From: Methanobacteriota archaeon
GTDB lineage: Archaea > Halobacteriota > Syntropharchaeia > Alkanophagales > Methanospirareceae
Assembly: GCA_034660415.1 (NCBI GenBank)
Contig: JAYEJE010000289.1
Coordinates: 1-20,989, forward strand
Reading direction: 5' to 3'
Length of the DNA stretch: 20,989 bases
Shown: positions 9,537-16,326 of the stretch, piece after piece
How positions within the stretch are numbered: position 1 is the first letter of the stretch
How the letters are laid out: every line of letters begins with the position of its first letter
Notes under the pieces: model-generated
Told to the model about the DNA's origin: nothing
Database searches by the model: none
Seen by the model: the letters and a program-made list of their open reading frames with translations, nothing else
Position numbers and translations under genes: made by a program

Positions 9537-11462
9537 GTGGCATTAATTATGGAAAAAGTGAAATTTTATCTAGTAAAAGGGTATATAGACTTTCAAAAGA
9601 ATGCAACTGCAGACATAGAACGTTTCTGGGCGAAAGAAGCGACAAAACTAGAATGGTTTAAACCCTGGGAAAAAGTACTCGAATGGGAAGAGCCATTTGC
9701 AAAATGGTTCGTTGGTGGTAGGCTCAATGCATCTTACCTATGCGCAGATAGACATTTATATTCCTGGCATAAGAATAAAGTGGCTTTATATTGGGAAGAT
9801 GAAGCGGGAAATACAAAAGCTTTCAGTTATTTTCAACTCTATCGAGAAGTGAACCGGTTTGCATCCATGCTGGAGAATCTTGGCGTGAAAAAGGGTGATC
9901 GGGTAGTATTATACTTGCCTATGATTCCTGAACTCACGATCGCCATGCTCGCAACAGCAAGAATAGGTGCTATCCATACCGTTGTATTTTCAGGGTTCAG
10001 TAGCCAGGCACTGGCAGATAGAATCAATGACACATCGGCAGAGGTGTTGATATGCGCGGACGTTGGAAGAAGAAGGGGGAAATACATACCGCTTAAAACG
10101 ATCGTTGACGAGGCCATGAAGACTACTCCGACCATAGAGAATGTAGTTGTGATAAAACGGACGGAAGAAGATATAAATATGGTGGCGGGTAGAGACCACC
10201 TATACCAGGATTTAATAAAAGATGCCGATGAGTATGTAGAACCAAAGCAATTGGACTCTACCCATCCATTGTATATTCTCTACACGTCTGGAACCACGGG
10301 GAAGCCTAAAGGAGTCGTCCACTCAACAGGCGGATATTTGGCCTACATCTATGCCACCTACAAATGGGTCTTTGACATATCTGATGAGTCGGTCTATTGG
10401 TGCACGGCAGATGTAGGCTGGGTGACAGGACATACATCAATAGTTTATGCGCCTTTACTTCATGGTGCAACAGTACTCATGTATGAAGGAGCACCTGATT
10501 TTCCGAATCCTGATAGATGGTGGGAGATTATCGAGAAATATGGCGTCACAATCTTTTATACCTCTCCAACTGCAATCCGGATGTTTATGCGTTATGGAGA
10601 AGAGCGAATAAAAAAATATGATTTGAGCAGTTTAAAAATCCTCGGCTCGGTCGGTGAGGTTATCAATCCTGAAGTATGGGTATGGTATTACAAGAATATA
10701 GGGGACGAGAGATGTCCGATAGTAGATACCTGGTGGCAGACAGAGACAGGGGGGATAATGATTTCTCCCGTACCTGGTATAGAGCTCGTACCTCTTAAAC
10801 CGGGTTCTGCAACTCTGCCTTTACCTGGTATAGACGCAGAGGTAGTAGATGAGGAAGGCAATCTAGTAGACCGGGGTATAAAAGGCCATTTGGTAATACG
10901 AAAACCCTGGCCTGGTATGTTGATGGGGCTTTACAAAGACCCAAAAAGGTACAAAGAGGTCTACTGGTCTAAATTTAAAGGTATGTTTTATACCGGCGAT
11001 TATGCGATAAAGGACGAAGATGGCTACTTCTGGTTGCTTGGAAGGACAGATGAAGTGCTAAAAGTAGCCGGGCATCGATTGGGTACCGCAGAGGTAGAAG
11101 GTGCTGTTGTGGCGACACCATTTGTTGCTGAGGCTGCTGTCATTGGCACGCCAGACCCTATAAAGGGAGAGAATATCATCGTCTTTGCGATATTAAAGGA
11201 AGGATATAAACCATCAGAGAATCTGAAACAAGAAATAATCAAGGAGATTCGTAAGCAAATAGGACCTATTGCTACGCCACAGGAGATTTACTTCGTGGAA
11301 AAACTGCCCAAGACAAGGTCTGGTAAGATAATGAGACGTGTTTTAAAAACTATTATAATGGATAAGCCTATTGGAGACCTTAGCACTTTGGAGGATGAAG
11401 CTTCGGTAGATGAAGTAAAGGCAGTTTACGAAGAGTTCAAACAGATGGTGAAGGGGGTATAG
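9537..11462 (+). CDS. acs: acetyl-CoA synthetase (AMP-forming)
   Basis: FWAKEA...[93 protein letters not shown] and [14 protein letters not shown] are canonical Acs motifs. The start may instead be ATG 9549, which is preceded by GAAGGTGG. Confidence 0.9.
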
Positions 11463-11617
11463 GGGTATTTTGGTTAAAGAAAGGAGGGAACATCTAGCCA
11501 TCCCAACTCTCTTGCTATTAGTACGGCATAGATGTCCCGGAGGCTTATGAGTACTATTTCATCCGTGAAACGGACCTGCCGGACTATGTATCTGTTGGCG
11601 CGACGTCCGTTAATGGG

Positions 11618-12808
11618 GTGGTGAGAACCAGCAACGAGATCGAGTATAACCTTAATAAGCACCCATTGAAGGATCAGACGCTGACCGGCAACAAGTTCTG
11701 GGACCTACGAGAGACAGAACCACTACCGGCTCCAAAGGGGCCGGACTTAGCGATTTTATCCGCGGAGAACTGGGCGTTTGAAGATGATGGACGGGTACTG
11801 CAACTCCTCGTGAAAATCGCGAATCACGGTGACACCAGAGCCAATCAGACAAGAGTTTATGTAGGGGATCCACAGCACGACTGGCCAGGTCGAGAAAGCG
11901 TGGTTCCTACTTTCAATCCCGAAGAGACGGGAACGATAGAAATACGACTTGACATTCCAGAGGAACAGAGGGGAACGACACACGTGTTTATGCTTGAACT
12001 CGATCCCGAGGACATGATCCAAGAGATAGATGAAAGGAACAATGTGGGGTGGACGCCCGGCATATTTATCCCCCCGCTCGAAGTGTCTCCAACACCGACT
12101 GAGCCAACATCATCCCCTACTGCTACACCTGTGCTCCCGGAGCCAGATCCGGTACCGCTTATCTTGATCGTGGTTACGATTGCCTCATTAGCTTGCATAA
12201 CCCTCATCATCCGTCACCATACCATTACCCAGCACCACAAGAAATGGCAGATGGAGGCGAAGGAAGAAGAGCCACCGGAGCACTGTCAGTATTGCACCCA
12301 CCACTGCCGTAAGATCGAACTTGAACTTGAACCGGCTATGCGCAAGATTACATACCTCTACCTCGGCGCCTACGACCCTGTTCATGGCGAGCAAATCAAA
12401 GAGGGGCAGGTAACGGGAGAGATTGTTGAAGGTCTAAACAAGGTAGTCTCGGCTCGTCACAGGCGTGAGAACGCAGAGAAACTGCAGGAGCAGGTGACAC
12501 TTCTGGCCCACGCGCTGTTGCAACAAATTATAGGATCGCTGCGCGACGAACTAGCACCCCGCGACATAACCATCACCGGACATCTGGGAGGTGGCAAGGT
12601 CACCTGCCAGTTCATTCTCTATCACTGCAAACGTAGCGGCACTATGAATATTTGGGAAGAAGAGGCAAAGTGGAAAGCAACGATTGCTGACGAACGTGAT
12701 GAACCCGTGGGCACCTTGCATAGCATTGACCCTGTAGAATCAGGGATTTCAGAACGACTGACACCTGTGCTGACCCGACTGCTGATGCAGTTCATTGAGA
12801 AAGTTTGA
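11618..12808 (+). CDS. CARDB-domain single-pass membrane protein with an uncharacterised cytoplasmic domain (possibly 5'-truncated)
   Basis: - CARDB-like block, aa ~41-145 (nt ~11738..12052): PDLAILSAE...LLVKIANHGDTRANQTRVYVG...FNPEETGTIEIRLDIP...LELDPEDMIQEIDERNN.
- Pro/Thr linker: PTPTEPTSSPTATPVLPEPDP.
- TM helix, aa ~179-198 (nt ~12152..12211), followed by basic RHH..HHKK.
- An unrecognised C-terminal domain of about 195 aa.
- The only possible starts are GTG 11618/11621, with no SD-like motif and no signal peptide. Confidence 0.6.
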   Translation: MVRTSNEIEYNLNKHPLKDQTLTGNKFWDLRETEPLPAPKGPDLAILSAENWAFEDDGRVLQLLVKIANHGDTRANQTRVYVGDPQHDWPGRESVVPTFNPEETGTIEIRLDIPEEQRGTTHVFMLELDPEDMIQEIDERNNVGWTPGIFIPPLEVSPTPTEPTSSPTATPVLPEPDPVPLILIVVTIASLACITLIIRHHTITQHHKKWQMEAKEEEPPEHCQYCTHHCRKIELELEPAMRKITYLYLGAYDPVHGEQIKEGQVTGEIVEGLNKVVSARHRRENAEKLQEQVTLLAHALLQQIIGSLRDELAPRDITITGHLGGGKVTCQFILYHCKRSGTMNIWEEEAKWKATIADERDEPVGTLHSIDPVESGISERLTPVLTRLLMQFIEKV

Positions 12809-12980
12809 GCGCACGATATTCGTTAACGCAACAGCTACTTGTACTGTCCACAAGCATGTTACAGTAACTTTTATATAGCATTCCTATCAGATAAAAAAGT
12901 AAACGTAGGAGAGTTAAGCGATGCTAATATCTATGCGATATATACGGGACCTTGTGGCGATTAAAGCATATAAAAAATAG

Positions 12981-13119
12981 GGTGCTCTCGTAGAGTTAGC
13001 GAAGAAAGTGGGTGATAGGGGGATTTATCTACAGAATGTTATTCCGCTCATCCCGCAGTATAAATTCGCCCATATCACACCGCCGACATTGCCGTGCTGA
13101 TACTATCGGCTGACTGGGA
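12981..13119 (+). pseudogene. relic of a NifB-family radical SAM gene 3' end (paralogue of CDS 15379..16326)
   Basis: GALVELAKKVGDRGIYLQNVIPLIPQYKFAHITPPT aligns with IIEIAKKVGGMGVYLQNIMPLIPQYKFAHITPPT of the intact gene. After an internal deletion of about 23 codons plus a frame change, CRADTIG*LG aligns with CRADAIGRLG, with an in-frame TGA. The 5' ~245 codons are missing. Confidence 0.7.
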
Positions 13120-15378: not shown

Positions 15379-16326
15379 TTATTTTGAGAACATACACCCT
15401 TGGATATCTTTTCCCAGTCTCCCAATAGCATCTGCGCGGCACTGCCGGCAGTGTGTCATCTGCATCACATATTCTCCACATTTCTCTTGCATCTCCTTCT
15501 TCTCACGCGGTGTTGGTGGTGTGATATGTGCGAACTTATATTGTGGGATGAGGGGCATGATATTCTGCAGATAAACACCCATTCCCCCTACCTTCTTCGC
15601 TATCTCTATGATGTGCGTATCATTCACCGTGGGAATAAAAACAGTGTTCACTTTTACCACTATCTTCCTTTTTACCGCTTCTTCTATTCCTTTTAACTGA
15701 TTCCTGAGCAATATCTCAGCCGCTTCTCGCCCTATGTATCTTTTACCCTCGTAATTGACAAAAGAATAGATGTTCTTGCCGATGTCTGGGTCTACGGCGT
15801 TCAGCGTAACGGTCACGTTGCCGATTCCCAGCTCTTCAAGTTCGTCAATTCTGTCTGGCAGGAGCAACCCGTTCGTACTCATGCACCTTATGATATGTGG
15901 GAACTCAGCCTTTACGAGCCTGAATGTTTCAAACGTCTCTTCGTTGAACAGCGGCTCGCCTGGTCCTGCAATGGCAACAACTTTGATGTAATGCACCTGT
16001 TCAAGCACTTCCTTTACCCGTTCTAACGATTCCTGTGGTGTTAGCACCTTGCTCGTCACGCCTGGTCGAGACTCATTCACACAATCATATTTGCGCAGGC
16101 AGTAATTACACTGGATGTTACACTTCGGCGCTACCGCGAGATGGATTCTACCAAATAAATGGGCAGCGTTCTTACTGAAACAAGGGTGTTCCTGGACTCT
16201 CCTCAGTTGCGTGGGGTCCCATGGTATTTCCTTGCCTTCTACTTTGGCTGTGGGTAGTGTACACGCCTCTTCACTCTCTGCAAGCGGCTCTACCATTCCA
16301 GTTGTTTTTGCTATGGTTTCGCTCAT
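15379..16326 (-). CDS. nifB: NifB-family radical SAM protein (stand-alone radical-SAM-domain type)
   Basis: HPCF...AAH...GRIHLAVAPKCNIQCNYCLRKYDCVNESRPGVTSKVLTP is the NifB signature around the CX3CX2C radical SAM motif. CMSTNGLLLP and VTVTLNAVDP are also present, as is the C-terminal CX9CX2C followed by RADAIG (KCGEYVMQMTHCRQCRADAIG). There is no NifX-like C-terminal domain. GGAGAAGG precedes the ATG. Confidence 0.85.
   Translation of the reverse strand: MSETIAKTTGMVEPLAESEEACTLPTAKVEGKEIPWDPTQLRRVQEHPCFSKNAAHLFGRIHLAVAPKCNIQCNYCLRKYDCVNESRPGVTSKVLTPQESLERVKEVLEQVHYIKVVAIAGPGEPLFNEETFETFRLVKAEFPHIIRCMSTNGLLLPDRIDELEELGIGNVTVTLNAVDPDIGKNIYSFVNYEGKRYIGREAAEILLRNQLKGIEEAVKRKIVVKVNTVFIPTVNDTHIIEIAKKVGGMGVYLQNIMPLIPQYKFAHITPPTPREKKEMQEKCGEYVMQMTHCRQCRADAIGRLGKDIQGCMFSK

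Follow-up and report, generated by a model that had tools for sequence, protein, structure and literature searches.

The 20,989-nt stretch of DNA analysed here (the window) harbours, on its forward strand, an open reading frame of 396 aa at positions 11618 to 12808, whose gene-caller product was found in a protein-database search as P0005, with 395 aa. Re-reading of the sequence corroborated what a first-pass annotation, prepared from the sequence alone, had reported about this ORF: the frame is open upstream as far as a TAG at 11519-11521, and contains no ATG, GTG or TTG between that TAG and the GTG at 11618. The same annotation had described a CARDB-like domain, a Pro/Thr linker and one transmembrane (TM) helix followed by basic residues, all of which were confirmed. 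The CARDB beta-sandwich (11741-12046, residues 42-143) matched Pfam PF07705 with 32.5 bits against a gathering cut-off of 22.7 (E=1e-7, profile positions 2-98 of 101), and the equivalent part of an intact relative, P0007, was modelled with a pLDDT above 90. It is preceded, at 11522-11740, by the surviving C-terminal strands of another, N-terminal beta-sandwich, which were recognised by alignment with relatives and from strands 118-179 of the P0007 model; in the relatives this sandwich is weakly SdrD_B or carboxypeptidase-regulatory-like, with sub-threshold Pfam matches in P0009 and P0017. Downstream of CARDB, a Pro/Thr-rich linker (12071-12154, residues 152-179), disordered in the P0007 model, leads to the single TM helix (12155-12217, residues 180-200, Kyte-Doolittle 19-mer maximum 2.78). 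The helix is directly followed by the basic residues RHH..HHKK and, in the P0007 model, continues into the cytoplasmic domain. The last 193 aa (12227-12805, forward strand) run to the stop codon and constitute a domain that had been called unassignable; indeed, no Pfam or NCBIfam family matched it. The motif EHCQYCTHHC reported for its beginning and the later HCKRSG were both confirmed, at residues 221-230 and 336-341 of the 396-aa ORF, respectively.

A search of 5.8 billion proteins retrieved 49 relatives, mostly of 500-690 aa, and none of them started at GTG 11618, a shared start there having been named in the first-pass annotation as the mark of an intact gene. In all full-length relatives, this codon corresponds to the first Val of a conserved ...SVNGVVRTSN... 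stretch, that is, to an internal Val codon. The 32 codons that precede it in frame find their counterparts, position by position, inside the longer homologues. The full-length relatives (P0007, P0008, P0009 and others) start with a canonical signal peptide formed by a basic n-region, a LLLLVMILAVAL core and a PGHAQ/S cleavage site, and in the 500-690-aa relatives the end of the signal peptide reads ...LLLLVMILAVALTPGHAQ/S. P0007, which is 545 aa long and 95% identical, has this signal peptide and an additional N-terminal beta-sandwich. Its model comprises a signal helix (residues 11-24), a disordered stretch (24-66), the beta-sandwich (68-179), CARDB (193-300), a disordered linker between CARDB and the TM helix, the TM helix itself continuing into a cytoplasmic helix (327-362) and the C-terminal domain (377-544, pLDDT above 90).

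When P0007 was compared to the window by tblastn, its residues 1-18 were located at 11470-11523 (frame 1, 72% identity), one frame off the main ORF, and its residues 119-545 at 11522-12805 in the next frame, whilst residues 19-118 were missing from the window. The segment 11470-11523, also aligned with the corresponding sequences of three genomes of the same genus (G036, G037 and G042), represents on the forward strand a remnant of the original 5' end, including the start region and the first part of the signal peptide. DNA alignments with same-genus genomes placed a deletion junction, which rests on one metagenome assembly, between positions 11522 and 11523 (TTAGT/ACGG). Compared to G036, 305 nt are missing at this point, and compared to G042, 401 nt; the comparison with P0007 gives ~302 nt. 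The two deletion edges share GT alone as microhomology. All three lengths equal 2 modulo 3, and therefore the deletion is frame-shifting. The start codon has been lost as well, as G036, G037 and G042 have an ATG where the window has AGG (11482-11484, forward strand). G037, 97.9% identical in the gene, retains both the ATG and the signal-peptide region; in this single-cell genome the gene is split over two contig ends. Since the signal peptide has been deleted and its ~18 first residues are left out of frame and without an ATG, the window copy has to be regarded as a broken member of the family. These alignments indicate that it is a 5'-truncated remnant, which lacks its start codon, the cleavage site, the first N-terminal strands and the greater part of the signal peptide, and that the 395/396-aa gene call is an ORF-finder artefact with its start at an internal Val. 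A 5' truncation had already been suspected, and the homology of the upstream codons, the gap of 305/401 nt and the ATG to AGG change now support it; the lack of a signal peptide, also noticed at that time, proved to be real, the peptide being deleted here and present in intact relatives.

The gene lies in a variable island (11453-12889, forward strand, with the right edge uncertain, from 12889 to 12972). The site was compared in eight genomes of the genus, four of which carry the island while the other four lack it. At the occupied sites (G000, which is the window genome, G036, G037 and G042) the order is acs, the gene, a nifB relic and cbiX; at the empty sites (G038, G039, G040 and G041) acs is followed by the relic and cbiX within ~180 nt. 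Alignment of the empty-site genomes with the window reaches ~11452 and resumes at 12966-12973, and across the genus the size of the island is about 1.4-2.3 kb. Its left edge corresponds to the last codons of acs. With the island present, the acs product ends in KGV or KGL (...QMVKGV or ...QMMKGL before the stop), and with the island absent in KR or IR (...QMMKR or ...QMMIR; window 11444-11462 compared to L021:2240-2275). As the last acs codons differ with the state of the island, the indel edge must lie inside the coding end of acs, supplying its stop codon. At the empty sites acs is followed by a GATAAAATAGTAAA-like motif, whose counterpart in the window sits at 12890. A TTTATATA box at 12870-12877, ~65 nt past the stop codon of the gene, was conserved in all four island carriers (G000, G036, G037 and G042), and could be a terminator-proximal element or an orphan archaeal TATA box.

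Beyond the gene, and independent of its presence, a relic of the 3' part of nifB occupies positions 12988-13119 of the forward strand. This relic had been noted in the first reading of the sequence, and it was verified by the 79% complementarity of 12988-13088 to 15511-15611, inside an intact nifB, with which it forms an inverted repeat. The accompanying proposal, that the gene had inserted into a former nifB paralogue, had to be abandoned: the relic was present in 4/4 gene-less genomes (G038-G041), at their empty sites, which means that no nifB paralogue was split by the gene, and no 5' nifB piece was found upstream. The window contained no tRNA as a possible integration site, and no long direct repeats flanked the island. 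The acs tree was star-like, with occupied and empty genomes intermixed, and G036, the most divergent genome of the genus, carries the gene. In outgroup genera the neighbours of acs differ, with no shared synteny at the site, and the C-termini of their acs products (KEA, KRA, KEV and GGSA) do not decide between gain and loss of the island.

The G+C content of the region had also attracted attention, on the basis of hand counts of 32/60, 17/60 and 25/60 that were exact on recount. The local elevation persisted once it was computed over same-size windows genome-wide: the gene has 51.9% G+C versus 43.3% for the genome (a 2.14-Mb, 357-contig MAG), which places it at the 99.5th percentile of 5,761 windows of its size, and its GC3 (0.56) lies at the 97.8th percentile of 813 long ORFs, whose mean is 0.45. 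The rise coincides with the gene body. Relatives in other genera of ANME-1, a group of methane-oxidising archaea, have 48-54% G+C versus 42-46% in their flanks, and bacterial members are 0-8 points above theirs. It should be considered that the gene has a GC1 of 0.61 and that part of the G+C excess may derive from amino-acid composition. The relatives in other genera sit at unrelated, non-syntenic loci. The dS values of the gene were lower than those of the adjacent acs, both in the comparison with G037 (0.068 vs 0.10) and with G036 (0.11 vs 0.24). Moreover, the tree of the C-terminal domain (C-domain) was incongruent with taxonomy; in it, a second copy in G041 grouped tightly with a genome of another genus, and an ANME-1-family copy with a contig binned as Desulfobacteria. 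Taken together, the G+C and GC3 values, the absence from 4/8 genomes, the non-syntenic loci, the low dS and the discordant tree suggest that the gene is probably of horizontal origin. The horizontal acquisition put forward in the first-pass annotation thus gained support, as a probable origin, from the composition outliers, the four empty sites among eight, the unrelated loci and the tree.

Two near-identical pairs of C-domains cross taxonomic labels (L031 with L033, and L029 with L030). One of them consists of the Desulfobacteria-binned contig and an ANME-1-family genome labelled Bathyarchaeia by NCBI, the other of two different ANME-1 genera, and each pair reflects either a recent transfer or mis-binning. 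Family members in MAGs were very often located 0-2 kb from a contig end (G028:C13, G041:C3, G052:C127, G030:C105 and G037:C18), a placement that would fit strain-variable or hard-to-assemble regions.

Lesions were found in other copies of the gene within the genus. The G042 copy (L014:4951-7047), a version with two CARDB domains, is split over three frames, with two frameshifts relative to P0006, to which it is 96-99% identical, and the G036 copy (L013:9744-11279) has suffered an in-frame 87-nt deletion by which 29 codons of CARDB are gone. The dN/dS of the gene was 0.28-0.49, compared to 0.10-0.15 for the neighbouring acs. From these lesions we infer that the gene is decaying independently in sister genomes of the genus. 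In the window, the 428 codons after the junction are still open which, together with a dN/dS below 1, means either that the lesion is recent or that part of the gene is still in use.

In our view, the locus probably represents a gene copy, inactivated recently, that once coded for a membrane-anchored surface protein of type-I topology (N-out, C-in) in an ANME-1 archaeon. When complete, such a protein would consist, in this order, of a signal peptide, a small beta-sandwich, CARDB, a Pro/Thr stalk, a TM helix and a cytoplasmic domain of ~190 aa. A deletion of ~302-305 nt, no multiple of three, eliminated the signal peptide for the most part, together with its cleavage site and the first N-terminal strands, and the original ATG has additionally mutated to AGG; it is because of the deletion and the loss of the ATG that the annotated 396-aa ORF starts at an internal Val codon. 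The remnant most likely yields no functional or exported surface protein. It forms part of an island of ~1.4-2.3 kb, rich in G+C, present or absent within the genus and probably horizontally derived.

Other explanations of the truncated frame were weighed. The organism could have an intact gene and the junction be a mis-join introduced during assembly, in line with a MAG made of 357 contigs and with the fact that the homologues included no other assembly showing this junction. However, the two sides of the junction have just 2 exact bases (GT) in common, too little for a k-mer assembler to join them, and the change from ATG to AGG constitutes a separate lesion, 38 nt upstream of the junction, in uniquely aligned sequence. 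As the sister-genome copies also bear lesions of their own, we regard an assembly artefact as unlikely. A truncated gene that is still used, from an internal start such as Met134, would give rise to a short outside tail followed by the TM helix and the cytoplasmic domain, an arrangement seen in natural short members of 200-260 aa (such as P0108, P0175 and P0181, with a short N-tail, the TM helix and the domain), and the frame is still open. The C-domain, moreover, had the lowest dN/dS of any part of the gene when compared to G037 (0.19), but this value rests on just 10 substitutions, and against G036 it was 0.71. No start signal was identified for internal initiation, and the short members in the databases may include fragments. 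Continued use seems improbable to us. That the gene is intact as annotated, with 396 aa read from GTG 11618 and without signal peptide, agrees with the 395-aa product (P0005) given by the gene caller. Nevertheless, GTG 11618 and the next codon are a conserved internal V-V, homology extends 32 codons further upstream up to the junction, no homologue starts at this position and the export of ~178 residues would be required with no signal peptide to direct it, all of which makes an intact gene very improbable. Being probably a recently inactivated gene, the window copy itself is an ordinary pseudogene, and what makes the locus interesting is its membership of the unnamed cytoplasmic domain family.

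The 193-aa domain was compared by HMMER phmmer to 1.84 billion cluster representatives, which yielded 206 representatives at E<=1e-3 and 46 at E<=1e-30, in proteins ranging from 52 to 1,571 aa and with residues 1-193 covered. Across 12 genome loci, the identity of the C-domain ranged from 49 to 98%. Architectures were counted in the 171 proteins containing the N-terminal edge of the domain: it was located at the C-terminus in 167 of them, and 150 had a hydrophobic segment no more than 45 residues upstream. Both traits are present in the window copy, with its TM helix at residues 180-200 and a domain reaching up to the stop. The ectodomains varied across the family, including CARDB (one to five copies), PKD, DUF11, NPCBM_assoc, DUF1080-like and Qn_am_d_aIII, and some members were nearly devoid of ectodomain. 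Named genome records with the domain belonged to ANME-1, a Guaymas Basin bacterium, Desulfobacteria, Verrucomicrobiota and WOR-3. Given the N-terminal signal peptide and export-type domains, and the basic residues after the TM helix, the C-domain should be inside; the predicted topology is therefore N-out, C-in, with the conserved domain cytoplasmic. An N-out anchored protein with a novel cytoplasmic domain had been offered as one reading of the locus; this description suits the intact family well, but not the window copy, whose 5' end is deleted.

According to its confident AlphaFold2 model (pLDDT 92.4, pTM 0.77), the C-domain adopts a globular alpha/beta fold, in which a helix is followed by three strands, two helices, a long beta-hairpin of ~55 residues (112-167) and a C-terminal helix. 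In domain numbering, a Cys/His set is formed by C20, C23, C27, H119, C127, H133 and C134, with C20, C27 and C134 as the core and C23, H119, C127 and H133 as subfamily positions. Conservation reached 96% for C20, 80% for C27 and 99% for C134, as well as 97% for W143, 99% for W149, 94% for F129 and 71% for H119. C23 and H133 co-occurred, being both present in 83 members and both missing in 76, with 12 discordant cases, and the pattern of the window copy, CCCHCHC, was the commonest (51/171 members). The Cys/His set may be a metal site, predicted to hold Zn or an Fe-S cluster, and in those members that keep only C20 and C134 the putative site may be shared between subunits.

No family match to the C-domain was obtained in Pfam, NCBIfam, PHROGs or PADLOC. 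VWA_N2 was considered and rejected, its Pfam match (E=0.015) not reaching the cut-off. Searches against the PDB by sequence and by profile gave no match, and Foldseek against the PDB returned nothing at E<=1e-3, with a TM of at most 0.17. BFVD and the wide structure search of VIA-align gave no match either, and in two runs against the ESM Atlas all scores were below 0.8, with a best TM of 0.51 to an unnamed cluster; each of these family, sequence and structure searches is to be read as a weak negative. The domain did not show a zinc-ribbon or C2H2 pattern. No gene neighbour was conserved across the loci inspected, where MutS/IlvD, UDG/HSDR_N/methyltransferase, acyl-CoA dehydrogenase, LeuA-like, radical SAM and BPL_N genes were found, so no partner was indicated. 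By sequence and model, the C-domain defines an unnamed family, for which no match to a described family, and apparently none to a solved fold, emerged from the databases searched.

In the intact family, the variable, adhesin-like outside would bind a partner or the matrix, and the conserved inside domain, which probably holds a metal through its Cys/His residues, would dock or signal to a putative cytoplasmic partner. More tentatively, and with the balance leaning against it, the C-domain might be a new metal-binding (Zn or Fe-S) fold through which a variable, adhesin-like ectodomain is linked to a partner inside the cell. It would then give an undescribed class of single-pass surface receptors or anchors, horizontally exchanged among anaerobic sediment archaea (ANME-1) and bacteria, with at least one bacterium having enlisted the protein for a contractile injection system. 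For annotation, the consequence is that surface proteins of ANME-1 should be tallied without the 395/396-aa gene call, which is a pseudogene remnant. The locus further exposes a strain-variable, G+C-rich island beside acs that is decaying independently in sister genomes. It also singles out a CARDB subfamily whose best-conserved part is an undescribed, confidently modelled Cys/His cytoplasmic domain, common to archaea and bacteria, which is a concrete candidate for a new domain family.

A possible link to contractile injection systems arose at one of the loci inspected, L036, the only one with an eCIS context. In this Verrucomicrobiota MAG contig (CAYZXL010000033.1, L036:369-11205), a 600-aa family member (L036:4780-6582) is encoded inside an eCIS operon, with a Pvc16_N+TIG gene upstream. 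The family gene has a 4-nt overlap with the stop of a Pvc15-like WHD+AAA ATPase gene, and is followed by two effector-like genes with eCIS_core (PF13699), one of them with an M35 peptidase. With the queries used, no Pvc16_N or sheath gene was detected in the window genome, the Pvc16_N query having matched no control genome either. CisA, the membrane adaptor of the cytoplasmic contractile injection system of Streptomyces, has its N-terminus inside and its C-terminal domain outside (PMC12237407). The present family resembles CisA in being composed of single-pass membrane proteins and in having one member inside an eCIS operon, but its topology, as predicted from the signal peptide and the basic residues, is the opposite, with the conserved C-domain inside. 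This opposite predicted topology argues against a CisA-type adaptor identity.

CARDB surface proteins of ANME archaea and of their sulfate-reducing partners have been discussed as adhesins (PMC5244752, PMC10553843). The family described here is similar to them in its CARDB domain above the cut-off, in the signal peptide of its intact members, in its adhesin-like modular ectodomain and in its occurrence in ANME-1. What sets it apart is that the conserved cytoplasmic domain (~190 aa) behind the TM helix, rather than CARDB, defines it; within the family, CARDB is swapped for PKD, DUF11, a DUF1080-like domain or almost no ectodomain.
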